Assembly (NCBI GenBank): GCA_048499675.1
Contig: JASNZL010000008.1
Location: 27-64,026 of the forward strand
DNA from: Candidatus Zambryskiibacteriota bacterium
GTDB taxonomy: Bacteria > Patescibacteriota > Minisyncoccia > Phycocordibacterales > WO2-35-19
DNA length: 64,000 nucleotides
Reading direction: 5' to 3'
The notes beneath the pieces were generated by a model. The model worked only from the letters and a program-made list of their open reading frames with translations, searched no databases and was not told where the DNA came from. Positions 12,846 to 47,590 of this stretch are shown here, piece by piece (position 1 is the first letter of the stretch; each line of letters opens with the position of its first letter). The translations under genes and the position numbers were made by a program.

Positions 12846-13010
12846 CGAATTGGTTACGAATAGATACGAACAAGAAACGAGGTACGAAGTAGAATTAATC
12901 TAATTACACTAATTAACCTAATTATTCTAAATAATGACTAATTCTCAGTCCTAAATTTAAAATTGGGCATTGAGATTTATTTAGATTAATTAGAAATTAG
13001 AGTAATTACT

Positions 13011-13100
13011 TGTCCCGCGTAGTTTTAACGAAGTGGGACTTGTCCCGCGTAGTTTTAACGAAGTGGGACTTGTCCCGCGCAACTTCAGTGAAGTGGGAGA
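13011..13100. repeat. 3 x 30-bp perfect/near-perfect tandem repeats, each an internal hairpin (GTCCC...GGGAC), at the head of the secretion-like locus
   Basis: tgtcccgcgtagttttaacgaagtgggact repeated twice exactly, third copy tgtcccgcgcaacttcagtgaagtgggaga; no spacers. Confidence 0.8.
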
Positions 13101-13183
13101 ATAATTATTTTTGCCCACCTGTTCCCAAATCCTCTTTCACACTTTTTCTTTCTTTTAAGCTTAGTCTTGTTATAATTATTGTA

Positions 13184-14038
13184 ATGATGGCACCGAGTAA
13201 TAAAGCAATAAGCATAATTGTGATTACTTCAGCTTTTGTAATATTTGTTATTGTTGGTTTTGGTTTTGAAAAATCTTCTAACCTTGTTGGTAGTGCCGAC
13301 AATTTAATAGCTGGTGAAAAAATATTGCCCCCAACGAATCCAAATTGGCAAGAAGATTTAGATAAATTAAACATCCAGAGCAAAGATTTGAGCGGGGCAG
13401 AAACTATCCCAAATAGAGACACAGTGACCGAAGCTCTCTCTATCACACTCGCGTCAAATATTTTGACACATAAACAAAACAATACCCTCACCGAAAGAAC
13501 CGCCTTAGAACTAATAGACAAAAGCCTTGATTTTGTTGATAGTACAGCACCAAAAACAGATTCATTCAAAGTTACTGATTTAAATGTAGTCCCAAATAAC
13601 GGCCAAATCTCAATCAAACAATATGGCGAAAATCTAGGCCTAATCCTCAAAACAAGTAGGCCAGTAAATGCCAAAAATGAGATGCAAATAGTTGGAGATG
13701 CTATAGAAGCAAACAACCCATCAAGAATGAATGAGCTTGATCCTGTAATAATGAATTACCAAAACCTAACCGAAAAATTAGTAAAAATGCCTGTACCAGA
13801 GCTTTTTGTCAAAGCACACTTAGATATGGTTAATGGTTTAAACCAAATCCCATCTTCTTTAAAAGAAGTAAAAAAGGTTTTTGCTGATCCAATGACTGGT
13901 CTGATGTCACTTGAACTCTACAATGATGGCGTTAGTTTGTTTGCTTCAGCAATAAGCGCAACTGTTGAATTTATCAAGTCAAACAAAGTTATTTATGAAC
14001 AAGGCAGTGGTGGTTACTTCTTGTTGTACGGGATATAA
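13184..14038 (+). CDS. N-terminally membrane-anchored extracytoplasmic protein (first gene of the T4SS-like locus). The ATG start at 13184 is chosen; the ORF-track TTG start at 13010 would read through the tandem repeats.
   Basis: MMAPSNKAISIIVITSAFVIFVIVGFGF hydrophobic anchor followed by hydrophilic domain; no family recognised. Confidence 0.45.
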   Translation: MMAPSNKAISIIVITSAFVIFVIVGFGFEKSSNLVGSADNLIAGEKILPPTNPNWQEDLDKLNIQSKDLSGAETIPNRDTVTEALSITLASNILTHKQNNTLTERTALELIDKSLDFVDSTAPKTDSFKVTDLNVVPNNGQISIKQYGENLGLILKTSRPVNAKNEMQIVGDAIEANNPSRMNELDPVIMNYQNLTEKLVKMPVPELFVKAHLDMVNGLNQIPSSLKEVKKVFADPMTGLMSLELYNDGVSLFASAISATVEFIKSNKVIYEQGSGGYFLLYGI

Positions 14039-17743: not shown

Positions 17744-18325
17744 ATGGATAATACAAAAGAATTATTGATACAAAAAATAGAATCTTTACCCAAAGCATAT
17801 AAAAGCTATATTTTGAGTAAGGAATGGGTTAAAAATTTATCTGAAACTTTTTTAGGTTTTACTTTTGATGAATGGCAAATAACTTCTATTGAAAATGAAG
17901 TATTTATTGTACTTGTTGGTTTAGAGCCATACACAAATCTATCAGAAAATATTTCAAAAGAAGCGGAAATTGACATAGAAACAGCAAACAAAATAGCGGT
18001 GGGTATAATAAATAAAATACTTGGACCAATAACAGAAAAATTTAGAAAAGATTTTGGTATCCCCGAAGAAACAAAACAGCCAGAAAAAACAAACCCGATA
18101 GGAAAATCATTTGAAGAAACAATATTAAACCAAGCGAGAGGGATGATGCCTGCCCGCCACGCTTCGCAAAGCGATGCGGGCGGGCCTGCCCGTCCTGCGA
18201 ACGAAGATACGAGTTACGAGATACGAGATGAGGCAAATAAAAAAATAGAGGAAAACAACAAACCAAATGTTCCATTACCTAATTATTCTGGAGGAAACGA
18301 TCCGTATAGAGAACCAATTCAATAA
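17744..18325 (+). CDS. acidic hypothetical protein carrying an in-frame GC-rich hairpin + heptamer-repeat insertion (MPARHASQSDAGGPARPANEDTSYEIRDE)
   Basis: ORF continuity through the insertion at 18149-18228. Confidence 0.5.
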   Translation: MDNTKELLIQKIESLPKAYKSYILSKEWVKNLSETFLGFTFDEWQITSIENEVFIVLVGLEPYTNLSENISKEAEIDIETANKIAVGIINKILGPITEKFRKDFGIPEETKQPEKTNPIGKSFEETILNQARGMMPARHASQSDAGGPARPANEDTSYEIRDEANKKIEENNKPNVPLPNYSGGNDPYREPIQ

Positions 18326-18454
18326 TTACCTAATTCCTAATTGCCCTAATTAATCTAAACAAATCCAAAGGCCTAATTTTAAAATTGGGAATTGTAGATT
18401 AGTCATTATTTAGAATAATTAGTATAATTAGATTAATTAGAATAATTTAACCCT

Positions 18455-18889
18455 ATGCGTTTTCAAATACCACAATTTATTGATGTAGAAGACCAAATAC
18501 TTGGCCCTTTTACTTTAAAACAGTTTATTTACATTGCAGGAGGCGCAAGCGTTGCTTTGATTTTTGTAACCCTACTTGGTGTTTTTTGGGGACTTTTAGT
18601 TTCTTCTCCAATTGTAATTCTCGCTCTAGCTCTGGCTTTTTACAAAATAAACAACAGACCGTTTATAAACACCCTCGAGTCAGCATTTAAATATATGATC
18701 AAAGACAAACTCTATATTTGGCACAAAAAAGAGCCTGAGGAAAAAGAAGCAGACTCTAGTACCGACAAAAAATTTAGCTCGCTTGTTGTGCCCAACTTAT
18801 CCCAAAGTAAACTCAAGGATATGAACTGGGAATTAGATGTGAAGAAGAAGGAAAACGAGTTACGAGATACGAGTAACGAGATACGATAA
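18455..18889 (+). CDS. small two-TM membrane protein, VirB3/PrgI-like candidate; C-terminus encoded by heptamer repeats (ENELRDTSNEIR)
   Basis: MRFQIPQFIDVEDQILGPFTLKQFIYIAGG followed by two hydrophobic helices; lies immediately upstream of the VirB4 gene, as VirB3 does. Confidence 0.5.
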   Translation: MRFQIPQFIDVEDQILGPFTLKQFIYIAGGASVALIFVTLLGVFWGLLVSSPIVILALALAFYKINNRPFINTLESAFKYMIKDKLYIWHKKEPEEKEADSSTDKKFSSLVVPNLSQSKLKDMNWELDVKKKENELRDTSNEIR

Positions 18890-19192
18890 AAAGATTTTGA
18901 AAATTTAAAATTTAATAAGAGTTAAAACTTAAAAGCGTTTTTGTTTATATAAAAAATTTTAACAGTTAACTCTTTTCATTCCTAGGGTTGTTTTAATCTT
19001 TAAATGATTAATTCAAAATAAAGAATGAATATAACTAATAACAAAGGATATAATACGGTGTATTTAAATTTTTTTATTTTATAAGTGGTGCAAATCAAAA
19101 AATAGGATTATAATCATTAATATAGATTTGGTTGTTTATTTTAAAAATTAATTCGTACTTCGTTACTCGTACCTCGTAACTCGTCCATTTTT

Positions 19193-19813
19193 ATGAAGAA
19201 TGCTACACAAAAATTTGTACCAATAGATGATGTCAGAGATGGCATTGTTATTTTGAAAGAAGGTGGAATGAGAGGGGTCCTTATGGCTTCTTCAATAAAC
19301 TTTTCTCTAAAATCAAACGACGAGAGACAAGCAATCCTGATGCAGTTTCAAGATTTTCTCAATTCTTTGGATTTTTCAATTCAAATACTTGTTCAGTCCA
19401 GAAGATTAGATATTAGACCTTATGTTGCACTGCTTGAGGGACGGCACAAAGAACAAACAAACGACCTTATGAAAATTCAGATAGAGCAATACATACAATT
19501 CGTAAAAAGCTTTACCGAGAGCACAAACATAATGACCAAAAACTTTTTTATTGTCATACCTTATGATGGGGCAATTATCTCTTCAAAAAAAGGAGTATTA
19601 TCTGGGTTTGGGAGTCAAAATAAATCAAAAGAATCACAAGAAGAAGATTTTGAAGAGAGGAAAAACCAACTTGAACAAAGAATGGCAGTGGTTGAACAGG
19701 GACTCGTCCGATGTGGAGTTAGAGTCGCAAAACTCGGAACAGACGAAGTGGTAGAATTATTTTATAAGATATTTAATCCAGGGGAGTCAGAGAAACCTAT
19801 TAAAATTTCGTAG
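19193..19813 (+). CDS. VirB4/TrbE/CagE-family ATPase, N-terminal domain only (5' fragment of a split gene)
   Basis: KFVPIDDVRDGIVILKEGGMRGVLMASSINFSLKSNDERQAILMQFQDFLNSLDFSIQILVQSRRLD and ...NFFIVIPYDG match the conserved N-domain of Gram-positive-type VirB4 proteins. Confidence 0.7.
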   Translation: MKNATQKFVPIDDVRDGIVILKEGGMRGVLMASSINFSLKSNDERQAILMQFQDFLNSLDFSIQILVQSRRLDIRPYVALLEGRHKEQTNDLMKIQIEQYIQFVKSFTESTNIMTKNFFIVIPYDGAIISSKKGVLSGFGSQNKSKESQEEDFEERKNQLEQRMAVVEQGLVRCGVRVAKLGTDEVVELFYKIFNPGESEKPIKIS

Positions 19814-19838
19814 AAATTTTAATTGTAAATAAAACAAA

Positions 19839-20258
19839 ATGAGTTACGAGTTACGAGTTACGAGTTACGAAACAAAAGAGAAAATAAACACTTTTCATGA
19901 TTTAAGAGTGTGGAAAGAAGCACATAATCTGGTTATATCAATTTATAAGACAACTAAAAATTTTCCAAAGGATGAGCTTTTTGGGTTAACTAACCAAATA
20001 AGGAGGTCTGCGGTCTCAATAACATCAAATTTAGCTGAAGGGTTTGGTAGAGAAACAATAAAGGATCGGGTACATTTTTATATTATATCCTTAGGATCAT
20101 TAAACGAAATCCAGAATCAGCTTCTCATTTCAAAAGATGTAGGATACCTAAGTTTAGAAAATTGGAGTAAGCTTGAAGAACAGATTATAATTGTAAACAA
20201 GATGCTTAATGGTTTAATAAAAAGATCCAGATCGTACTTCGTTACTCGTACCTCGTAA
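19839..20258 (+). CDS. four-helix-bundle protein of the 23S rRNA intervening-sequence protein family
   Basis: DLRVWKEAHNLVISIYKTTKNFPKDELFGLTNQIRRSAVSITSNLAEGFGR...SLGSLNEIQNQLLISKDVGYL matches the family consensus. Confidence 0.8.
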   Translation: MSYELRVTSYETKEKINTFHDLRVWKEAHNLVISIYKTTKNFPKDELFGLTNQIRRSAVSITSNLAEGFGRETIKDRVHFYIISLGSLNEIQNQLLISKDVGYLSLENWSKLEEQIIIVNKMLNGLIKRSRSYFVTRTS

Positions 20259-20265
20259 CTCGTTC
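19841..20265. mobile_element. inverted-repeat-flanked insertion splitting the VirB4 gene; carries a four-helix-bundle protein gene
   Basis: left arm GAGTTACGAGTTACGAGTTACGAGTTACGAA (19841-19873) and right arm TCGTACTTCGTTACTCGTACCTCGTAACTC (20231-20265) are near-perfect reverse complements; the arms encode the N- and C-termini of the cargo ORF. Confidence 0.55.
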
Positions 20266-20272
20266 TAAATAT

Positions 20273-22078
20273 ATGTTTGATTTTTTTAAGAAAAAAGAAA
20301 AAGAAAGTTTAACGGCTATTTCAATATTGCCGAAATCTATTACTGAAAGCTCGGAGCTAGAACTACAAGATATTTTGGCACCAAGTGCCTTAAAGGTTAA
20401 TGCAAAAGAGTTAAACCTTGGTGAAAAATTAGTTAGAAGTTTTTTTGTTATATCTTATCCTCGTTTTCTTAATGAAGATTGGTTTGCTCCGATTATAAAT
20501 ATGGATAAAATGTTTGATATTTCAATATTTATACATCCATTAGAAACGGCAAAAATATTAAGAAATTTCCAAAAAAAGGTCGCGGAGGTGCAGAGCCAAA
20601 TAAGAATGAGAGAGGAAAAAGGTTTGGTGAGAGACCCAATGCTTGATACGGCATACCAAGACCTAGAAAACCTGCGTGACGAGCTCCAGCAGGCCCAAGA
20701 AAAAATGTTTGAGGTTGGTTTATATATTTCAGTCTATGCAAACAACAGCGAAGAGTTGGACAAAGTTGGATCAGAAATAAAATCCATATTGGAATCAAAA
20801 CTTGTATACGTAAAACCAGCGCTTTTCCAACAAGAACAAGGTTTTGAGAGTATTCTTCCAATTGCAAAAGATGAGCTAAATGTACACTCAAAAATAAATT
20901 CTTCACCACTTTCAAGTATTTTCCCATTTATATCTTTTGACCTAACTTCTGACAAAGGAATACTCTATGGTATCAACAGGCACAATTCTTCTTTGATTTT
21001 GTTTGATAGATTTTCATTAGAAAACTATAACTCTATTACTTTTGCAAAATCTGGTTCTGGTAAATCATATGCCACAAAATTGGAAATAATAAGGACACTA
21101 ATGTTTGACACAGAAGTAATTGTTATTGACCCAGAAAACGAATATGAATATATGGCCGAAGCGATAGGGGGTAGGTATTTTAATATTTCTCTAAACTCCG
21201 ACCACCACATCAACCCATTTGAACTTCCTGTCCCTGGTGAAGACGAGTCCGGCGCTTCAGTTTTGAGAAGTAAGATTATAAATCTAGTGGGATTGTTTAG
21301 AATCATGATGGGCGGTCTTACAGCTGAAGAAGATGCGATTATAGACCGCGCAATCACAGAAACCTATGCCCTCAAAGATATTACTCCGGATTCTGATTTT
21401 GCAAATGTTGAACCCCCACTTCTTTCTGATTTTGAAATGGTATTGAGTGGTATGGAAGGAGGGGAATCATTGGCCCAAAGACTAACCAAGTACACAAAAG
21501 GAACTTGGTCCAACTTTATAAACAGACCTTCAAACATAGACATAAACAAAAAATTTGTCGTCTTTTCTATTAGAGATATGGAGGACGAACTCAAACCCGT
21601 TGCGATGTATATCGTGACCCACTATATCTGGAACGCTATCAGGAGAAATATCAAAAAGAGACTTCTTGTTATTGACGAAGCTTGGTGGATGATGAAATCA
21701 GAAGATACTGCGTCATTTTTGCTTTCGCTTGCAAAAAGAGGTAGGAAATATTACTTGGGACTTGCCACAATCACACAGGATGTTGATGACTTTTTGAAAT
21801 CACCTTACGGAACTCCCATAATTACAAACTCATCAATTCAAGTACTCTTGAAACAGTCACCAACTTCAATAGACAGACTTCAAGAAGTTTTCAATCTAAC
21901 AGACGAAGAAAAATATCTACTTATAGAATCTGGAGTAGGGGAAGGAATATTCTTTGCTGGTCTCAAACACGTAGCTATCAAAATAATTGCTTCTTATACA
22001 GAAGATCAAATAATCACATCTGACCCATCTCAAATTTTGGCTATGAAAAAAGCCAAAAGAGAAGCAGAACTTGAATAA
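20273..22078 (+). CDS. VirB4/TrbE/CagE-family ATPase, central + C-terminal ATPase domains (3' part of the split gene)
   Basis: FFVISYPRFLNEDWF...DISIFIHP (CagE_TrbE_VirB region), Walker A AKSGSGKSY, Walker B LLVIDEAWWMM, RGRKYYLGLATITQDVDD. Confidence 0.85.
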   Translation: MFDFFKKKEKESLTAISILPKSITESSELELQDILAPSALKVNAKELNLGEKLVRSFFVISYPRFLNEDWFAPIINMDKMFDISIFIHPLETAKILRNFQKKVAEVQSQIRMREEKGLVRDPMLDTAYQDLENLRDELQQAQEKMFEVGLYISVYANNSEELDKVGSEIKSILESKLVYVKPALFQQEQGFESILPIAKDELNVHSKINSSPLSSIFPFISFDLTSDKGILYGINRHNSSLILFDRFSLENYNSITFAKSGSGKSYATKLEIIRTLMFDTEVIVIDPENEYEYMAEAIGGRYFNISLNSDHHINPFELPVPGEDESGASVLRSKIINLVGLFRIMMGGLTAEEDAIIDRAITETYALKDITPDSDFANVEPPLLSDFEMVLSGMEGGESLAQRLTKYTKGTWSNFINRPSNIDINKKFVVFSIRDMEDELKPVAMYIVTHYIWNAIRRNIKKRLLVIDEAWWMMKSEDTASFLLSLAKRGRKYYLGLATITQDVDDFLKSPYGTPIITNSSIQVLLKQSPTSIDRLQEVFNLTDEEKYLLIESGVGEGIFFAGLKHVAIKIIASYTEDQIITSDPSQILAMKKAKREAELE

Positions 22079-22353
22079 AGAAGGGGTAGAAGCTCGTAAA
22101 ATTGAAAAAATTATTCTAATTTCTAATTAACCTAATTATCCTAAAAAAATCCTAAATTCTAAATTCTAAATTTGGAAGTTTTAAATTTTGGATTTTGAAT
22201 TTCTGATTTGCTTGCCCTGTAAAAGCTTGCTTTTATTCGAGTTTAGTATTTCGGATTTAGAATTTAGAATTTTATCGTATCTCGTACTTCGTAACTCGTA
22301 CTTCGTTTGCCTTCATATCGTGTTTTATTTTAAACTCTTGATATAATATCCTT

Positions 22354-23361
22354 ATGGATGAAGCTATAGAACAAAATGCTGGCATACAAAGAGAACCTCT
22401 AATAAGGCCTGTTCGTAAGTATCCAAGAGAAAAAGAAGTAAAACATAGAATTAAAATATGGATGGCTTACTGCCTTATTGTTTTTGCTGTAATGATAGAC
22501 TTCGCTGAGTTGGGCACTACTTATATTGGAGTTGTGGTTATTGGTGGGATTTTAAGCAATCTAATTGCAGCTTTTGCCACAACCGTTTTTTGGATTTGGT
22601 TTTTGATACTAGGAGTCCCTTATTCTGCTAATACCAAAAGGTTTGGTGTAATGGTGGTGACTCACGTTGCAGAGTATGTCCCCGTGGCTGATGCTTTGCC
22701 GTTTTGGTTTATGTGGACAATAGGTATGGCGGTTACTATAGGAATGGTGAGGATGGAGGATAAGGGAGAAAAACCAACAATTCTTGGTGGGATATTAGAA
22801 ATATTATCGATAACAGCACCATCTCCAGGTATTTCCATTTTAAAAAAAATTACCAGCTCTCAATTGGTTCTTAATAAAATACATAATGTAAAGTACGCTA
22901 AACAAATTAATAGTATGGATAGATTAGGGAGTGTAGAATCTGGCACAAAAGGTAATTCCAAAACATTAGATTTAAGAAATAAAAATACTCACTCTGGTTA
23001 TTCTCTAAAAAAACGGCCCCCTACGAACCAATCTGCTCAATCGCAACAAAAATTGAATAGATTACAATCTGACATTAGTAGATATCAAGCAGAGATACAA
23101 CAAAAAGAAAGAGAGTTGGCACAAAAAGAACAACACTACAAGGAAAATGAGGACGGTTTTACTCGTGGCCTCGAAATAATTCGTTCAACCAGAGATATTA
23201 ACAAAGAAGAAGAAGCCAGATACTTTAGGGAACATAGTTCAAGAATGACCTCTTTCTACCAAGACATAGACAAACTAAAATCCAGCATAGCAGGACTTAA
23301 AAAACTAATCTCTCAATTACAAAATGAAATATCGATATCCCAATCAAAAACTGTAACTTAA
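22354..23361 (+). CDS. membrane protein (3-4 TM) with long C-terminal coiled coil; unknown function, in T4SS-like locus
   Basis: hydrophobic helices in residues ~45-140, heptad-rich tail. Confidence 0.45.
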   Translation: MDEAIEQNAGIQREPLIRPVRKYPREKEVKHRIKIWMAYCLIVFAVMIDFAELGTTYIGVVVIGGILSNLIAAFATTVFWIWFLILGVPYSANTKRFGVMVVTHVAEYVPVADALPFWFMWTIGMAVTIGMVRMEDKGEKPTILGGILEILSITAPSPGISILKKITSSQLVLNKIHNVKYAKQINSMDRLGSVESGTKGNSKTLDLRNKNTHSGYSLKKRPPTNQSAQSQQKLNRLQSDISRYQAEIQQKERELAQKEQHYKENEDGFTRGLEIIRSTRDINKEEEARYFREHSSRMTSFYQDIDKLKSSIAGLKKLISQLQNEISISQSKTVT

Positions 23362-28650: not shown

Positions 28651-29994
28651 ATGGACACTCAAGAACTTTGGAACAACGTTTTAGCTAAAATAGAATCATC
28701 TGTTTCTAAAGCGAACTTTGCAACTTGGTTTAAAGACACTAAAATATCAGGTTTTGACGACGGTATAGTGTATTTGAGTGTACCAAACACATTTGTTCAA
28801 GAGTGGTTAACAAAAAAATTTCACCAAATAGTCCTTAAATTTCTCAGGGAGTCATCTGATTCTATTCATGGCTTGGAGTATGTAATAAAAGAAGAAGTAA
28901 AAACAAAAAATCAATATATTCCTACAAAAGGATCTTCCCCAACTAGAGAACTACCACTTTCCGAACTATATGTGAACAAGGAAGATAATTTGAATCCAAG
29001 ATACACGTTTGAAACATTTGTTGTTGGACCTTTTAATGAACTCGCGTTTGCAGCAGCTCAAGCTGTAATAAAAAATCCTGGCGTTACATACAACCCATTT
29101 TTTATTTATGGAAATACAGGACACGGCAAAACTCACCTTATACAGGCAATAGGAAATGCAATAAAAACTAATGACCCAACAAAAAAAATATTTTACTTCA
29201 CATCAGAAAAATTTTTAAACGACTATGTAGCGTCTGTACAATCCAACAAAGTTACCCAATTCAAGGAAAAATACAGAAAGTATGATGTTTTGATTATGGA
29301 TGATGTTCAATTCTTGTCTGGTAAAGAAAAAACTCAAGAGGAATTGTTCCATTTGTTCAACATAATGAGAGAGTCTAACAAACACATAGTATTTTCTTGT
29401 GATAAACACCCTAATTTTGTTACAGGACTAGAAGACAGGCTAAAATCAAGGTTTTCTTCTGGGATGGTTTTGGATATTCCTGCACCAGACCACGAATCTC
29501 GGGTGGCAATAATAAAAGCTAAGTGCTCTAGCATAAACCTTTATCTAGGAGACGATATAATTGATTATTTGGCTGACTCCATAAAAGGTAATATTAGGGA
29601 CTTAGAAGGGGTTATAAACCTAATAGTTTGCCAAACAGAGACAAAAAACAGGACACTTACATTAAACGAAATAAAAGATTTGGTTAAAAACAGTATCAAA
29701 CAAAAAAAATTGCTTTCCTATAAAGAAGTAGTAAAAATAATATCTGATTTTTATAAAATAGAAGAAGAGTCAATCTACGAAAAAACCAGAAAGAAGGAGG
29801 TTATAAAACCAAGACAAATAATAATGTATATTTTGCGAGAAGATTTTAGTATTTCTTATCCTTCAATAGGGGAGAAATTGGGAGGAAGAGACCACACAAC
29901 GGTTATCCACTCATGCGAGAAAATAAAAAAAGAAATCAAAGTTGATAATCTTTTAATGAAAGAAATTCAAGAAATCAGAGGTATGATAGGTTAA
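28651..29994 (+). CDS. dnaA: chromosomal replication initiator DnaA
   Basis: Walker A GNTGHGKTHL, Walker B VLIMDDVQFL, C-terminal DNA-binding domain. Confidence 0.95.
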   Translation: MDTQELWNNVLAKIESSVSKANFATWFKDTKISGFDDGIVYLSVPNTFVQEWLTKKFHQIVLKFLRESSDSIHGLEYVIKEEVKTKNQYIPTKGSSPTRELPLSELYVNKEDNLNPRYTFETFVVGPFNELAFAAAQAVIKNPGVTYNPFFIYGNTGHGKTHLIQAIGNAIKTNDPTKKIFYFTSEKFLNDYVASVQSNKVTQFKEKYRKYDVLIMDDVQFLSGKEKTQEELFHLFNIMRESNKHIVFSCDKHPNFVTGLEDRLKSRFSSGMVLDIPAPDHESRVAIIKAKCSSINLYLGDDIIDYLADSIKGNIRDLEGVINLIVCQTETKNRTLTLNEIKDLVKNSIKQKKLLSYKEVVKIISDFYKIEEESIYEKTRKKEVIKPRQIIMYILREDFSISYPSIGEKLGGRDHTTVIHSCEKIKKEIKVDNLLMKEIQEIRGMIG

Positions 29995-29997
29995 TAA

Positions 29998-30198
29998 GTT
30001 GTTAACAGATTGTTTATAAGTTGTATTAATTGTGTTTAGAGTTGGTGTATAAAAAACAATATTTTTATAACAACGAAGATATTCAAGTAGTTATACACAT
30101 AAACAAAAAATACTTATTCAAAAAATCCCTTTATTTAAAACATTTTAAAACTAATCAACTAATCCACATCTTTAATAATCTTTAATTAATTTAAATAT
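29998..30198. promoter_or_regulatory. AT-rich dnaA-dnaN intergenic region with near-consensus DnaA boxes (TTATACACA 30091-30099; TAATCCACA 30160-30168); candidate oriC/DUE
   Basis: box matches 8/9; ~80% AT. Confidence 0.5.
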
Positions 30199-31299
30199 AT
30201 GAAACTAGAATGTAATAAAGAAGTGTTAGATAAAGCAATCCAAAAAACAACCAGACTTGCAGGAAAACATTTAACACTACCAGTGCTTTCTTGTGTATTT
30301 ATAGAAGCATTTGGAGACGGAAGAGTGTTGTTAAAATCTACAAACCTAGATCTTGGTCTTGAATTAGAAATAAAGGCAAAGGTTTTTGAAGCAGGAAATG
30401 TTGCTGTGCCTGCAAATATTTTTTATGGGGTCTTATCTTCGGTTAAAGACGATGTTTTGATTTTGGAAAAGAAAGATAATAATTTAAAAATCGAAACAAA
30501 AAGTAATTCAGCTTTAATAAAATGCATGCAAAGCGAAGACTTTCCAAGTATTCCAAAATTAGAAAAAATAAACCCAATCAAAATAAACTACGAGGATTTG
30601 ATGCTTGGTTTTAAGTCTGTTTGGTATAGTGCATCAAATTCTAGTATAAAACCAGAACTTGGTAGTGTTTATATATACAAAGGAGATAATGGTTTAGTTT
30701 TTGTTTCTACAGATTCGTTTAGATTGGCAGAAAAAACAATAAACACAAAAATTTCTGATGATTTTCCTACAACACTAATACCATACAAAAATGTAGCAGA
30801 AATAATGAAAATATTTGAAGATGGTAACGAGGATATAGAAATTATATTTGAAAAGAACCAAGCCGCTTTTATAAGAAAAAATGTGTATTTAGTATCACGT
30901 CTTATTGATGGTAATTTTCCTGACTACAAACAAATTGTGCCAAAATCCTATGTTTCGAGTGCGACTATTTTAAAAAATGATTTGATTAACGCCATTAAAA
31001 CCTCAAACATATTTTCTGATAATTTAAATCAAACAAAAATAAAAGTTATCAATAAAGAAAAAATCTTAGATATTGAATCAAAGAATAATGATGTGGGGGA
31101 GTATAGAGAGTCAATAAAAGCATCAATAAACGGCGATGATATAGAACTCAATTTCAATAACAGGTATATTACCGAATGTATGCAATCAATACCTTCTGAA
31201 AGCATAACCCTTAGTTTTGGTGGTATAGGCAAACCACTTATGATTACAGGCTCTTCAGATAAAAGTTTTGTTTATATTGTGATGCCGATGAATAGGTAG
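30199..31299 (+). CDS. dnaN: DNA polymerase III beta sliding clamp
   Basis: 366 aa, three-domain length, immediately downstream of dnaA; MKLECNKEVL...LLKSTNLDL pattern. Confidence 0.9.
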   Translation: MKLECNKEVLDKAIQKTTRLAGKHLTLPVLSCVFIEAFGDGRVLLKSTNLDLGLELEIKAKVFEAGNVAVPANIFYGVLSSVKDDVLILEKKDNNLKIETKSNSALIKCMQSEDFPSIPKLEKINPIKINYEDLMLGFKSVWYSASNSSIKPELGSVYIYKGDNGLVFVSTDSFRLAEKTINTKISDDFPTTLIPYKNVAEIMKIFEDGNEDIEIIFEKNQAAFIRKNVYLVSRLIDGNFPDYKQIVPKSYVSSATILKNDLINAIKTSNIFSDNLNQTKIKVINKEKILDIESKNNDVGEYRESIKASINGDDIELNFNNRYITECMQSIPSESITLSFGGIGKPLMITGSSDKSFVYIVMPMNR

Positions 31300-39817: not shown

Positions 39818-40261
39818 ATAAATATTATAGCACGCTGTTTGGGATAGAATAAGTTAAAACAACACGAATTAGGGAAACGAGGTACGAGATACGAAGTACA
39901 ATAAAATATTAAATTCTAAATACTAAATCCGAAATATTAAACAAAACTTTAAATTCTAAATTCAAATGTTCAAAACAAAAATTTTATTTTACAATTTAAA
40001 ATTTATAATTCCAGTAACTTGAAAATTAAATTAGTAAGATTGGTCCGCCCGCAACGCCTTAAGTGAAGCAATTGCGGGCAGCAGGTTTCCAAGGACTGTC
40101 CTTGGAAGTGAAAAAACAAATTTTCCAAGGGCTACCCTTGGAAGTGTTTTTAGGATTGTTTTTCAATGTATTTGGTTGGTGTATTGGAACAAAAAAGGCC
40201 TGAAGCCATTGACAAAAGGTTTCAAATTTGCTATAATTAGGGTAGAGAAGGAGAAAGTACA

Positions 40262-40918
40262 ATGAAAAAAGGGTTATTTCTGTCTGTTTTTTTGGCGCTT
40301 GTCCTCTTGGGCGGATGCCGGAAGACCCTCATTGTTCATGTCCCGGTTAGCCCGGGTATGAGCAAGACGGAGGTTGTGAAGGCCGAAAAAGAGGCGACCC
40401 GCCAGGCGGTCGCCGAGAAAAAGATGGAGGAACATGCCTCCAAAGCGGTGAGACAAATTGTCCGCCGTGCCACTCAACAAAACGAGTGGAAGCAAGAGTT
40501 CGCCCTCTCATGTCCCTACGGGGGCTACGAGAGGGTAATCATCCACCCCCACCTAGGAGACCAGTTCACTTATTGGAGGGGTGGGGGAGCCCAAAAAATC
40601 CTCATGCGCAGGGTGGTTATGGTGCATAGGGCGATGAACCCTTACACCAATCTCCCCTGCACCCTCCTCGAGGGTGGCCAGTTGGCGGTGAGCAATATGT
40701 GTCCGGGGGGGAGCATAACACTTGTCTCCTCCATTCCTCCCGTCGTTGGTGGCAGGGCACGGCAGGTAATCTGGACCGCCGAGGCCATGATTGAGGGCAG
40801 GCTCGCTCATAGCGAGTCGTCGCCAGGGATGATCTGGCAGGGGGACATGTGGTGGGAGGTTCAAATGAACCGCCCATCATGGATAATCGAATTCACTCGG
40901 GTGGATAAGGAATTCTGA
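40262..40918 (+). CDS. lipoprotein (lipobox LLGGC) encoded by a high-GC islet; unknown function
   Basis: MKKGLFLSVFLALVLLGGC; GC content visibly much higher than neighbours. Confidence 0.6.
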   Translation: MKKGLFLSVFLALVLLGGCRKTLIVHVPVSPGMSKTEVVKAEKEATRQAVAEKKMEEHASKAVRQIVRRATQQNEWKQEFALSCPYGGYERVIIHPHLGDQFTYWRGGGAQKILMRRVVMVHRAMNPYTNLPCTLLEGGQLAVSNMCPGGSITLVSSIPPVVGGRARQVIWTAEAMIEGRLAHSESSPGMIWQGDMWWEVQMNRPSWIIEFTRVDKEF

Positions 40919-40940
40919 TTCCACGATTCCACCCAAAATC

Positions 40941-40980
40941 AAGGGCGGGGAGCGCAAGCTTCCCGCCCTTTCTACTTTTT
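40941..40980 (+). terminator. rho-independent terminator after the lipoprotein gene
   Basis: AAGGGCGGGgagcgcaagcttCCCGCCCTTtctacTTTTT. Confidence 0.8.
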
Positions 40981-41129: not shown

Positions 41130-41627
41130 ATGCAATATACATCTAAATCAGTCGAAGAGACAGAAGAAATAGCAAAGGATTTTATAAACGATTTTATTTT
41201 ACAGGAGAAAAATAGAGACAAAGCTTTTGTGGTGGGTCTCTATGGCGACTTGGGGGCAGGCAAAACAACTTTTATGAAATGTTTCGCAAAAAATTTGGGT
41301 GTAAAAGAAACTATTCAAAGCCCAACATTTGTCATAATGAAGAAATACGAGTTACGAAGTACGAGTAACGAAGAACGAGAAAAAAAGGAATCTGATTTAT
41401 CGTACCTCGTACCTCGTACTTCGTATGCCTGTTTATATCACATTGATGCTTATAGAATAGAAAAAGACGAGGAAATGTTAAAATTAGGATGGGATGAAAT
41501 AATACACAACCCGAATAATTTAGTTTTTGTAGAATGGCCGGAAATTATAAAAGATATAATGCCACCACATACTAAAATATTTTTTGAACATATAAAAGAA
41601 AACGAGAGGGAAATAAAAATAATTTAA
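41130..41627 (+). CDS. tsaE: tRNA threonylcarbamoyladenosine biosynthesis ATPase TsaE, carrying an in-frame ~80-bp palindromic insertion
   Basis: P-loop GLYGDLGAGKTTF, SPTFVIMKKY, YHIDAYRI. The segment ELRSTSNEEREKKESDLSYLVPRTSYACL is encoded by inverted TACGAG-type arms (41346-41426). Confidence 0.8.
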   Translation: MQYTSKSVEETEEIAKDFINDFILQEKNRDKAFVVGLYGDLGAGKTTFMKCFAKNLGVKETIQSPTFVIMKKYELRSTSNEEREKKESDLSYLVPRTSYACLYHIDAYRIEKDEEMLKLGWDEIIHNPNNLVFVEWPEIIKDIMPPHTKIFFEHIKENEREIKII

Positions 41628-44023
41628 TGAAAGAGAATAAATCAAATAAAAAATTAGTTTTACTTGATGCGCACGCGATTATTCATCGCGCGTACCACGC
41701 CCTGCCAGATTTTGCTACAAGCAAAGGAGAACCAACTGGGGCGTTATATGGTCTTGTGGCAATGATTTTAAAAATAGTTACCGACCTAAAACCAGATTAC
41801 ATAGTTGCTTGTTACGATTTACCAAAACCAACTTACAGACACGAAGTTTATGATGGATATAAATTAGGCAGAGCAAAGACAGATGAAAATTTGGTGATGC
41901 AACTAGAAAAATCAAAACAGATTTGTGAAATTTTAAACATACCAATTTATTCCAAAGAGGGTTTTGAGGCTGATGATATGCTTGGAACAATAGTAGAGAA
42001 ATTGAAAATTCCTGTGGATATAATTATTGCATCTGGTGACATGGATACAATGCAACTTGTAAAAGATGGAACAGGAAAAACTGGAAGTGTTAAGGTCTAT
42101 ACTCTAAAAAAAGGCATAAACGACACCATTCTGTATGATGAGAGTAAGGTAATAGAAAGATTTGGTTTTCACCCAAAATATTTAGCAGATTTCAAAGGGT
42201 TAAGGGGCGACCCGTCGGATAACATCATTGGTATTGTTGGAATTGGAGAAAAGAGTGCAACAGAACTTATAAAGAATTTTGGAACAATTGAAGAAATATA
42301 TAAACAAATCCGAAATCCAAAATCCGAAATCCGAAACAAAATAAAAGAAAGGGTTATAAAATTGTTAGAAGATGGAGAAGAGGAGGCAAAATTTAGCAAA
42401 ATGCTCGCAACAATTAGAAGAGACGCTCCGATAGATTTTGTTTTGCCAGAAACCGAATGGAAAAACGGCGTTGATTTGAATAAGGCAAAAGCGCTTTTTG
42501 CGGAATTGGAATTTAGAAATATGGGCAGTAGGCTTGAAAGTGTTTTGGGTAACGCTTCGGACGAAAGTCGCAAGGACACACAAAAACAAAACGATGATAG
42601 AGATTTGCTTGAGAAATCGCGAAGTGTCGAGGTGGAAGAGGCAAAGGTGGCGCTCTGGGTTCTTGATTCAAACAAAACGGATCCAAGTTTGGAAGATGTT
42701 TTATTTGCAGGTAAATCAGAAAACTTTGATACGGCAAAGAAAAATATCATGGATGAAATAAAAAACAGAGAAAGTGAATTTGTTTTTGAGGAAATAGAGA
42801 AACCGCTAATTCCTATAATAAAGAAAATAGGGGAACACGGAGTTTTGATAGACAAAATTTTCCTAAAAGATTTGGGAAAAAAATATTCAAAAGAGTTAGA
42901 AAAAATAGAGAAGGAAGTCTGGCAAGAAGCAGGCACTGAATTTAATGTTGCTTCACCAAAACAACTAGGAGAGATTCTTTTTGATAAACTCAATCTTTCT
43001 GTTAAAAATCAAAAAAAGACAGCCGGAGGAGCAAAATCGACAAAAGAATCAGAACTAGAAAAAATGAAGGATATGCACCCGATAATTCCACTTGTTTTGG
43101 AATACAGAGAACTTCGCAAACTCTTATCTACCTATATAGACCCAATTCCAAAGATGCTTGATAAAGACGATAGATTGCATGCAAGATTTATACAAGCTGG
43201 CACCACAACGGGCAGAATGTCCTCGGAGAACCCAAATTTACAAAACATACCGATTGGTAGTGATAGAGGGAAAGTAATAAGAAATGCTTTTATCTCACCC
43301 AAAAAAAGAAAACTGGTTGCGATGGACTATTCTCAAATAGAGCTCCGTATATCCGCCTTTCTTTCAAAAGATAAAAAACTAATTGATATTTTTAGAAATG
43401 GTAAAGATGTGCACTCTGCAGTCGCTTCTGAGGTCTTTAGGGTAAATGAATATGAAGTAACAAAAGAGATGAGAAGGCAGGCCAAAGTAATAAATTTTGG
43501 GATTTTATATGGAATGGGAGTTACTGCTCTGCAAGCAAATTTGGGAACAGATAGGAAAACAGCTCAAGAATTTTTGAACGCATATTTTGAGAAATTTGAT
43601 GGTTTAGCAAACTATCTTCATAGGTCAAAACAAGAAGCGAGTGAGCTGGGATACACAAAAACTTTTTTTGGAAGAAGGAGGTATTTTGAGGGTATAAAAT
43701 CAAAAATCCCATTTATCAGAGCAAGTGCCGAAAGGATGGCCATCAACGCTCCTATCCAAGGAACGTCAGCCGATATAATAAAAATTGCAATGAAAAAAAT
43801 TGATGATTATTTGACTCAAAATGAGAGTTCAAAAAAGGCAAATTTGATTATGCAAATTCACGACGAATTAATATATGAGGTAGACGAATCTTTTGTTTCT
43901 GACTTTTCCAAGAATGCCAAAAATATAATGGAAAATACAATAGACAAAAAAGATATATCAGATGTGCCGATAGTTGTGAATGTTTCAGTGGGTGATAATT
44001 GGGGGGAGATGGAAGGATTATAA
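41627..44023 (+). CDS. polA: DNA polymerase I (5'-3' exonuclease + polymerase domains)
   Basis: N-terminal FEN-like LVLLDAHAIIHRAYHAL; polymerase motifs DYSQIELR (A), KVINFGILYGM (B), HDEL (C). Confidence 0.9.
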   Translation: MKENKSNKKLVLLDAHAIIHRAYHALPDFATSKGEPTGALYGLVAMILKIVTDLKPDYIVACYDLPKPTYRHEVYDGYKLGRAKTDENLVMQLEKSKQICEILNIPIYSKEGFEADDMLGTIVEKLKIPVDIIIASGDMDTMQLVKDGTGKTGSVKVYTLKKGINDTILYDESKVIERFGFHPKYLADFKGLRGDPSDNIIGIVGIGEKSATELIKNFGTIEEIYKQIRNPKSEIRNKIKERVIKLLEDGEEEAKFSKMLATIRRDAPIDFVLPETEWKNGVDLNKAKALFAELEFRNMGSRLESVLGNASDESRKDTQKQNDDRDLLEKSRSVEVEEAKVALWVLDSNKTDPSLEDVLFAGKSENFDTAKKNIMDEIKNRESEFVFEEIEKPLIPIIKKIGEHGVLIDKIFLKDLGKKYSKELEKIEKEVWQEAGTEFNVASPKQLGEILFDKLNLSVKNQKKTAGGAKSTKESELEKMKDMHPIIPLVLEYRELRKLLSTYIDPIPKMLDKDDRLHARFIQAGTTTGRMSSENPNLQNIPIGSDRGKVIRNAFISPKKRKLVAMDYSQIELRISAFLSKDKKLIDIFRNGKDVHSAVASEVFRVNEYEVTKEMRRQAKVINFGILYGMGVTALQANLGTDRKTAQEFLNAYFEKFDGLANYLHRSKQEASELGYTKTFFGRRRYFEGIKSKIPFIRASAERMAINAPIQGTSADIIKIAMKKIDDYLTQNESSKKANLIMQIHDELIYEVDESFVSDFSKNAKNIMENTIDKKDISDVPIVVNVSVGDNWGEMEGL

Positions 44024-44238
44024 TTACCTAATTTCTAATTATTCTAATTAATCTAAACAATTACTAATATGGTAAAAAATACAAAATACAGTAAACAAAT
44101 TACATATAAAATACAGGAAGTAGAATAAAACCTAAAACATTTAATTTTGTATTTTATAATTTGTGATTTGTTTATAATTTTAACTTTTGATATTTTTTAG
44201 AAATTATAATAATTAGAGTACTTAGAAAAATTATACTT

Positions 44239-46962: not shown

Positions 46963-47062
46963 ATGATTTAAATTATTCTAATTAACCTAATTTCTAATTA
47001 ATCTAATAGGTACTTGTAAATTGGGATTTTTTTAGAATAATTAGAGTAATTATACACAATAA

Positions 47063-47590
47063 ATGAAAGTTTCAAAAGGAAAAAAGGATGTTGTTGTAAT
47101 TCTGAACAACATAAGGAGTAATGAGAATGTTGGCTCTATATTTAGGACGGCAGACGCTTTTTGTGTTTCAAAAATATATCTATGTGGTTATACACCTGCT
47201 CCGCTGGATAGGTTTGGAAGAGAGAACAAAGGTCTAACTAAAGCATCGCTTGGCGCGGAGAAGATGGTTGTTTGGGAAAAGGTTGAAGATATGAAGGAGT
47301 TGATTAAACAATTAAAAATTGAAGGATATAAAATTGTCGGGATAGAACAAGATACCAATTCGTTAAATATAGAATCTTTTAATTCTAAAATCGTAACTCA
47401 TTACTCGTTACTCGGTTTAATATTTGGCAACGAAGTAGATGGTCTTAATGAAGAGGAACTAAAACTCTGCGACTATATAGTAGAAATACCAATGAGAGGA
47501 AAATTAAAAAGAGATAGGGGAGCAAGTAAAATAAACAAAGAATCCCTAAATGTTGCCGTAACAGCAGGGATAGTATTGTCTAGTATATAA
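47063..47590 (+). CDS. SpoU/TrmH-family RNA 2'-O-methyltransferase, with a short in-frame heptamer-repeat insertion (IVTHYSLL)
   Basis: NVGSIFRTADAFCV, LIFGNEVDGL motifs; insertion at 47390-47415. Confidence 0.75.
   Translation: MKVSKGKKDVVVILNNIRSNENVGSIFRTADAFCVSKIYLCGYTPAPLDRFGRENKGLTKASLGAEKMVVWEKVEDMKELIKQLKIEGYKIVGIEQDTNSLNIESFNSKIVTHYSLLGLIFGNEVDGLNEEELKLCDYIVEIPMRGKLKRDRGASKINKESLNVAVTAGIVLSSI

Follow-up and report, generated by a model that had tools for sequence, protein, structure and literature searches.

A probable intervening-sequence-type cassette between the two VirB4 genes of a Paceibacteria type IV secretion operon

What is a gene of the rRNA intervening-sequence protein family doing between the two parts of a conjugation ATPase, and has it broken that ATPase? 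The question is raised by a stretch of DNA of 64,000 nucleotides (nt), here called the window, in which an open reading frame (ORF) for the N-terminal domain of a VirB4-family protein (N) and one for its ATPase part (C) are separated by 459 nt (19814-20272), where a four-helix-bundle (FHB) gene lies between inverted repeats. A preliminary description of the region located these three ORFs, all of which were confirmed, and left three options: a disabled gene, a naturally split two-piece ATPase, or an element like an intervening sequence (IVS) with a stem that is processed in the transcript. Taken as a whole, the explanation that we consider probable is that the locus is a type IV secretion system (T4SS) operon of Gram-positive type in the chromosome of a Paceibacteria bacterium of the candidate phyla radiation (CPR); that its VirB4 is ancestrally two adjacent genes, for a TrsD/TraC-like N-domain protein and a TrsE/PrgJ-like ATPase; that the N-C spacer was colonized by an IVS-type cassette, a PF05635 gene in the loop of a 30-bp heptamer-array stem; and that the cassette family is widespread with fast turnover. 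The features concerned are, by position in the window:

19193-19813 (+), stand-alone VirB4 N-domain protein (TraC-like/TrsD-like), predicted 206 amino acids (aa); NCBIfam matches, PF26593 TraC-like
19838-19871 (+), left arm of the cassette, (GAGTTAC)x4.3, holding the FHB start codon; Tandem Repeats Finder (TRF) 19841-19870, period 7, 100% matches
19839-20258 (+), FHB gene (S23p/23S_rRNA_IVP family), predicted 139 aa; PF05635, TIGR02436, PDB 2gsc
20232-20264 (+), right arm of the cassette, holding the FHB stop codon; repeat search, TRF and fold
20273-22078 (+), VirB4-type ATPase piece (TrsE/PrgJ/CD1110-like), predicted 601 aa; NF045971, PF19044, PF12846

The C piece matched NF045971 conju_CD1110 (385.8 bits, cut-off 325, E = 4e-115, model positions 180-733 of 752) and PF19044 (96 bits, cut-off 25.8), as well as PF12846, and its translation contains Walker A (GSGKS) and Walker B (LLVIDEAW) motifs. 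Matches of N to NCBIfam models were weak (CD1110, positions 2-118, E = 9e-8; VirB4_plasma, 101-233; TrsD/TraD, 24-200 of 201), and its orthologues have PF26593 TraC-like on record in precomputed annotation. On a fused relative of 797 aa (P0212), N aligned to residues 8-214 (41% identity) and C to residues 230-791; they follow each other along this protein and are therefore contiguous halves of a VirB4, as the preliminary description had proposed. An ATPase model above its cut-off, an N-terminal domain contiguous with the ATPase part, and a neighbourhood with PrgI directly upstream and T4SS_pilin downstream place the predicted products in the VirB4 family. The two polypeptides would be expected to assemble into an active ATPase.

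Separate genes proved to be the usual state. The best 120 of 6289 N homologues are all 204-218 aa long, and when the representatives of 50%-identity clusters were searched exhaustively with N, 149 of the 150 best proved to be short, the other being the fused 797-aa form. Both halves are contained in 77 of 80 related genome loci; in every one of these 77, N (205-239 aa) and C are encoded apart, and the spacer has a median length of 5 nt; 1-15 nt with an own stop and start is the norm. An FHB gene occupies this spacer in 5 of the 77 (L022, L038, L068, L072 and the window type) and is missing from it in 72. An intact single-ORF VirB4 in the closest relatives, split only beside a cassette, was looked for in the 77 loci and not found. 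The two-gene state across relatives implies that the cassette entered an existing intercistronic spacer, and that VirB4 was neither disabled nor newly split. The proposal that an insertion had split the gene is thus contradicted by the comparative loci, in which N is a conserved stand-alone protein; a disabled gene is at odds with two intact halves that are 80-92% (C) and 55-86% (N) identical to their orthologues; and the naturally split two-piece ATPase was the correct one of the three options. Two genes encode VirB4 in these CPR bacteria, a conserved arrangement that annotators should not label a pseudogene.

The middle ORF had been called PF05635-like, and the profile search bears this out. 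The predicted protein scored above the curated cut-offs across the whole domain (PF05635, E = 2.3e-38, 131.1 bits, cut-off 33.8, positions 2-106 of 106; TIGR02436, E = 4.2e-36, 123.5 bits, cut-off 24), which makes it an unambiguous member of both families. It is similar in sequence to PDB 2gsc, a solved pentamer (E = 9e-19), and may likewise assemble as a homopentameric bundle. The motif RxxxSxxxNxxE is present as RSAVSITSNLAE; in the full motif GxxRxxxSxxxNxxE (PMC3936711), the leading G is replaced by Q. Comparison with relatives gave pN of 0.18-0.30, pS of 0.67-0.84 (saturated) and dN/dS of ~0.15-0.23 or lower, a pattern that clearly indicates a functional protein under purifying selection. 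Profile scans detected no recombinase or nuclease domain in it. The gene is also present at the identical site in L169 and L170, and the N-C cassette was found in three independent data sets and is therefore not an assembly artefact.

The arms of this cassette (19838-19870 and 20232-20264) are 33 nt each and 85% complementary at the DNA level. When the 459 nt were folded alone, they formed a stem of 30 base pairs with three 1 x 1 mismatches, enclosing the whole ORF (minimum free energy, -97.5 kcal/mol; z = -3.0 against shuffles) and retained in the centroid fold; inverted TACGAGN arms had thus been correctly recognized, though "near-perfect" overstated their match a little. Both the start codon (19839) and the stop codon (20256-20258) of the FHB gene fall within the arms, so that both protein termini are repeat-encoded, as first described; the stop codon lies 14 nt, and the end of the right arm 9 nt, before the ATPase start codon. 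The cassette accordingly has the long stem, made by terminal inverted repeats around an insert, that characterizes an IVS.

Among the closest known systems are the 23S rRNA IVSs with an S23p ORF (Coxiella burnetii, Leptospira and Brucella). The 23S IVS of Coxiella burnetii is 428 nt long; its 28-bp stem closes a loop that holds an S23p ORF, and this ORF is directly preceded by GACAGAT heptamers, the number of which differs from strain to strain; a 5' RNase III cut, shown experimentally, falls at the start of the first repeat and removes the ribosome-binding site, and the ORF is decaying and apparently untranslated (PMC4990558). The cassette shares with these IVSs a length of ~430-460 nt, a sense PF05635-family ORF in the loop, an inverted-repeat stem of ~28-30 bp, variable-copy tandem heptamers by the ORF start and the lack of a known mobility enzyme; a sense S23p ORF in the loop with tandem heptamers at its start is the Coxiella type of build. 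It differs in lying in a protein-coding intercistronic spacer, whereas rRNA IVSs lie inside rRNA genes (helix 25 or 45 of 23S rRNA; 16S rRNA in CPR bacteria), and in that its ORF is under purifying selection, whereas that of Coxiella is decaying. The locus is an rRNA-IVS-type cassette in an mRNA operon.

Settings outside rRNA have precedents, contrary to the preliminary description, which had the family confined to rRNA IVSs: many plasmid genes carry the annotation "four helix bundle protein", and Zhang, Doak and Ye described 23S_rRNA_IVP genes within cas operons in 2013 (PMC3936711). These authors read them as candidate Cas-associated functions; flanking arrays are not described in that paper. 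The cas-operon genes resemble the cassette in being PF05635 genes wedged between two co-oriented operon genes and in the motif RxxxSxxxNxxE, and we also found such genes between cas6 and cas4 and between cas10 and cmr3. The difference is that the flanks seen here reveal hairpin cassettes in many unrelated operons. PF05635-type genes have also been reported in rRNA insertions of CPR bacteria (PMC11270868). On the VirB4 side, the nearest comparison is the two-gene VirB4 of Gram-positive conjugation (TrsD/TraD plus TrsE/TraE of pGO1/pSK41 type; the PrgI-PrgJ order of pCF10), as named by NCBIfam and Pfam, in which a PrgI-like protein, a ~200-aa N-domain protein and a ~600-aa ATPase follow in the same order. 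The resemblance of N to NF041427 TrsD/TraD (positions 24-200 of 201) is, however, remote (31.7 bits, cut-off 200), and the Gram-positive systems are plasmid-borne whereas the CPR operon is chromosomal.

The arm architecture recurs around FHB genes elsewhere. With a score of at least 12.5 taken as the threshold for inverted flanking arms in the 80 genome loci, such arms were found at 18 of 21 FHB genes and at 1.75% of 400 control ORFs. The FHB protein was also used to retrieve a second set, of 80 metagenome loci, in which 69 FHB genes were evaluable; 57 had inverted arms, and in 53 of these 57 the strongest internal lag was exactly 7 nt. TRF assigned a period of 7, 14, 21 or 28 to 160 of the 175 best flank arrays (12% of control flanks), with a median of 4.3 copies per array (interquartile range, 3.6-4.7). 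The unit itself is element-specific (TACGAGT, TGAATTA, GTAGTAG, GATTTAA, CAACAAC, AGCTTTC and others), and unit similarity decays with FHB protein divergence, a co-variation that co-inheritance would explain as well as specific recognition. Co-orientation with both neighbours was observed for 53 of 56 elements, at median distances of 39 and 50 nt from them, in at least 79 gene contexts (flank clusters). Genes annotated as "four helix bundle protein" are enclosed by a like build on plasmids of cultured bacteria, for example, Nostoc punctiforme (CAGGAGT), Trichormus, Geminocystis (GGGAAAA), Picosynechococcus, Azospirillum (GACGGAG) and Riemerella (GGTTCAA), and several of these cassettes lie between cas genes.

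The rule of inverted arms with 7-nt period, 4-5 units, co-orientation and tight spacers was thereby seen for FHB genes of at least four phyla. Such a cassette, despite the family name "rRNA intervening sequence protein", is not tied to rRNA but is a fixed build that rides in operons, which explains why PF05635 genes recur in cas, secretion and other operons without belonging to those systems. The rule offers a handle on what S23p/IVP proteins do and on what dispersed heptamer repeats are, and in the searchable literature on PF05635, TIGR02436 and S23 proteins with heptanucleotide or tandem repeats it was not described. One exception was noted on plasmid pPg_01 of Pseudanabaena galeata (L082, between cas6 and cas4), where the long heptamer arrays beside the FHB gene are direct and not inverted, with at least 12 copies of AAAAGCT upstream and at least 10 of AAAAGCC downstream. 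The TAACTGA system of Beggiatoaceae (PMC4679880) was considered as the same thing and rejected, as it consists of direct repeats upstream of start codons and not of inverted arms around an ORF.

Two further kinds of dispersed repeat invite comparison. Mazel et al. (1990) are said to have described short tandem heptamer repeats (STRR) in cyanobacteria, and the arrays seen here resemble them in being dispersed intergenic heptamers with family-specific units; the literature that could be searched did not connect STRR with PF05635 genes. Rickettsia palindromic elements (RPE), which are not heptamer arrays, reportedly insert in frame into genes (Ogata et al., 2000), and ORF-less arrays in the window likewise lie in frame in housekeeping genes (tsaE, spoU and polA). 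The accessory protein Avd of diversity-generating retroelements (DGR) belongs to the same fold superfamily as the FHB protein. A role as Avd was rejected: matches to the Avd models were far below their cut-offs (PF22296 bAvd, E = 7e-5, cut-off 40 bits; NF033474, 24.9 bits, cut-off 80), and there is no adjacent DGR reverse transcriptase, the operon ORFs scanned containing no reverse-transcriptase domain and the vicinity no template/variable repeat pair.

Turnover of the cassettes was apparent upstream of the VirB4 genes as well, where the following features lie:

18455-18889 (+), PrgI-family (VirB3-like) T4SS gene; PF12666 PrgI, E = 1.9e-9
18855-18886 (+), left arm of a neighbouring ORF-less TACGAGN hairpin, ~4.6 heptamers; TRF period 7/14
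18887-19152 (no strand), AT-rich non-coding loop, 266 nt; stops in all three forward frames
19153-19184 (+), right arm of the ORF-less element; 32/32 identical to 20232-20263

The N-C spacer is hypervariable among genomes whose ATPase is ~90% identical. It measures 5-7 nt and has no hairpin in L008 and L063, and in L001-L009 it contains ORF-less hairpins of at least five unit families. One of these (L002) is homologous to both arms of the window's cassette plus the first ~20 nt of its loop, which suggests an internal deletion of the full cassette; more generally, ORF-less hairpins with like arms look like internally deleted cassette derivatives. FHB cassettes occupy other spacers of the same T4SS operon in other genomes. 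L170 is 99.1-99.4% identical to the window on both flanks and across the N-C cassette, and the flanks of L169 are ~88-92% identical to it. In both, the PrgI-N spacer of the window (18853-19195) is swapped for a cassette encoding a 117-aa FHB protein (711-1242 in L170 and 3479-4006 in L169), whose arms of 9-nt period, TAATTAGNN, replace the TACGAGN arms and their 266-nt non-coding loop. The C-terminus of PrgI changes with the element: in the window, its last ~11 codons (NELRDTSNEIR) are encoded by the TACGAGN array 18855-18886, and the L169 and L170 proteins end without an array-encoded tail. The locus is of moderate interest in itself; the heptamer-arm rule and the cassette swapping between strains merit follow-up.

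How would such a cassette be tolerated in an operon? It has the same orientation as the operon and no recognizable promoter or terminator (consensus scans of 18300-22500 gave counts at or below shuffle expectation, with none in the N-FHB spacer), so that expression by read-through is most likely. In the polycistronic RNA, the arms would pair, and RNase III would cut the stem, as in the heptamer-stem IVS of Coxiella, separating the N and C cistrons; since each has its own start and stop, host function would survive the cut. Translation of the FHB ORF, which runs from the foot of the left arm into the right arm, ending 14 nt before the ATPase start, would open the stem and could thus keep the downstream ATPase start site accessible. 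By analogy with Coxiella, the option of an IVS-like element with a stem processed at the RNA level is plausible.

Several points weigh against this account. Cleavage by RNase III, transcription by read-through and the translational relay are steps that we infer, and the FHB start codon would be lost if the stem itself were cut, so that processing and FHB expression may conflict. In a longer fold (18840-20290), the minimum-energy structure is nested, with 18855 paired with 20232 and 19153 with 19846; thermodynamics alone therefore leaves the pairing partners ambiguous. Among 163 arm mismatches in 24 elements, sense-strand G.U (42) and A.C (36) showed no bias, and without a G.U excess, selection at the RNA level is not demonstrated. 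Neither a mobility enzyme, nor a target-site duplication, nor a defined insertion mechanism was found.

A more general proposal, which we regard as tentative, is that PF05635 genes and inverted arrays together make one coherent, undescribed, cross-phylum class of operon-riding elements, of which the classical rRNA IVS would be the special case that landed in rRNA. The homopentamer would read a five-heptamer arm, one subunit per unit, driving processing, homogenization or movement, and ORF-less hairpins (STRR-type arrays and the tsaE, spoU and polA inserts) would be derivatives like miniature inverted-repeat transposable elements. That five heptamers fit a pentameric protein is offered as an idea.

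The best surviving rival, itself unlikely, is that the hairpins are intercistronic RNA elements selected by the host for processing, stability or translational coupling, with the FHB protein binding them in trans, and hence a regulatory module and not a selfish one. It accounts for hairpins of several unit families in most spacers of the operon and in many other intergenic regions, for purifying selection on FHB genes and their nearly invariable co-orientation with neighbours, and for an arm length of 4-5 x 7 nt, which fits a homopentameric protein. It sits poorly, however, with the variation in presence, unit family and cargo at a single spacer, seen at ~90% protein identity and even between strains that are 99.4% identical, and with L008 and L063, which have no hairpin at all; this is how dispensable, mobile sequence behaves. 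The in-frame arrays in housekeeping genes (tsaE, spoU methylase and polA) also fit invasion better.

Still less probable, in our view, is an element that acts solely on DNA, in which the arms either form extruded hairpins or cruciforms or provide patches of homology, cassettes are moved or exchanged between arrays by recombination, the FHB protein is a mobility or homogenizing factor, and RNA processing is irrelevant. The right arms 19153-19184 and 20232-20263 are identical at 32 of 32 positions, which points to recent copying or conversion, while the corresponding left arms differ; a whole cassette was swapped with sharp breakpoints at the arm edges between 99.4% identical strains; units change in concert within and between arms, and their similarity decays with FHB divergence; and the counts of G.U and A.C are symmetric, as DNA pairing predicts. 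A pure DNA palindrome would not, however, require the co-orientation of 53 of 56 elements, the FHB protein has no detectable recombinase or nuclease domain, and the one relative studied experimentally is processed as RNA (PMC4990558). Action on DNA is compatible with an IVS-type cassette in the spacer of a two-gene VirB4 and does not exclude it. That an intact VirB4 was broken in two, or disabled, by an inverted-repeat element in its interdomain linker has hardly any chance of being right: N and C are contiguous on the fused 797-aa relative and the cassette sits exactly at their junction (approximately residues 215-230), but the two-gene state in 77 of 77 loci (72 without FHB gene in the spacer), the 149 short forms among 150 best representatives, the 1-15-nt spacers with separate stop and start as the norm, and the conservation and intactness of both halves all speak against it.

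The cassette as read here, in the spacer of a two-gene VirB4, lies in a low-GC window (36.8% G+C) whose closest genome loci carry the labels Zambryskibacteria or Paceibacterota, at a protein identity of ~90%; from these nearest loci we infer a source within the Paceibacteria (CPR). The T4SS gene order is PrgI (VirB3-like), VirB4-N, VirB4-ATPase and, further on, a T4SS pilin (T4SS_pilin), a synteny conserved in 11 related loci mapped. The genes dnaA and dnaN (28651-31299) lie ~6.6 kb downstream of the operon, and ftsH, uvrD, ksgA, tyrS, polA and tmRNA are also present in the window; with these neighbours, the T4SS operon is chromosomal and near the replication origin, not plasmid-borne. Rfam at gathering thresholds gave no match in or near the region, finding the tmRNA and three tRNAs elsewhere in the window and no rRNA.

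Arrays of the same kind are scattered over the window. With up to two mismatches, (TACGAGN)x3 occurs 18 times (0 expected); the TACGAGN family comprises at least 10 arrays. The arms of the ORF-less element upstream of N (18855-18886 and 19153-19184) are 91% complementary and 266 nt apart; a decayed FHB gene in the loop between them was considered and rejected, as tblastn gave only repeat-derived matches (E > 0.2) and the frames are closed, and blastn of the loop found no homologue in the fetched loci. Three further elements were delimited:

22146-22273 (no strand), ORF-less hairpin of another heptamer family (AAATTCT/TTTAGAA), downstream of the ATPase gene; TRF period 7
22275-22306 (+), solo TACGAGN array of right-arm polarity; repeat search and TRF
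41347-41424 (+), ORF-less TACGAGN hairpin in frame inside tsaE; Pfam TsaE match in two stretches, split at residue 75

The first of these has arms of 26 nt (22146-22171 and 22248-22273), 88% complementary and 76 nt apart. The solo array is a further, less similar copy, with 84% complementarity to the left arm at 19838-19870. Two outer repeat copies had been thought to bracket the split gene; the copies are real (19153-19184 and 22275-22306), but both have right-arm polarity and belong to neighbouring elements in a family spread over the genome, and they do not bracket it.

Three housekeeping genes contain arrays in frame. In tsaE (ORF 41130-41627), the insert of 78 nt lengthens the stretch from the SPTF to the HxDxYR motif by ~26 residues (YELRSTSNEEREKKESDLSYLVPRTS). 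The SpoU-family methylase gene (ORF 47063-47590) has a solo TCGTTAC x3.4 array at 47391-47414 that leaves the frame unbroken, and 163 of its residues span 140 profile positions. In polA (ORF 41627-44023), a solo AAATCCG x4.4 array at 42306-42336 is in frame and encodes KSEIRNPKSEIRN.

Further heptamer families in the window are AAATTCT, AAATCCG and CTAAAAG, and period 7 accounts for ~34 of 119 TRF rows. A second dispersed family of intergenic hairpins has 9-nt units (AATTAATCT/TTAGAATAA) and is found at 12893-13008, 18323-18447, 22109-22144, 44033-44233 and 46971-47052. At 13008-13079, at the start of ORF 13010-14038, a 30-nt unit, ACTTGTCCCGCGTAGTTTTAACGAAGTGGG, is repeated perfectly in tandem (2.4 copies, then a diverged third copy); this repeat lies just downstream of the first of these hairpins and of a degenerate TACGA array (12850-12892). 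A GC-rich island at 40200-40950 (up to 59% G+C; window mean, 37%), which may have been horizontally acquired, spans ORF 40262-40918, whose predicted product of 218 aa has a lipoprotein-like signal peptide and no Pfam match.

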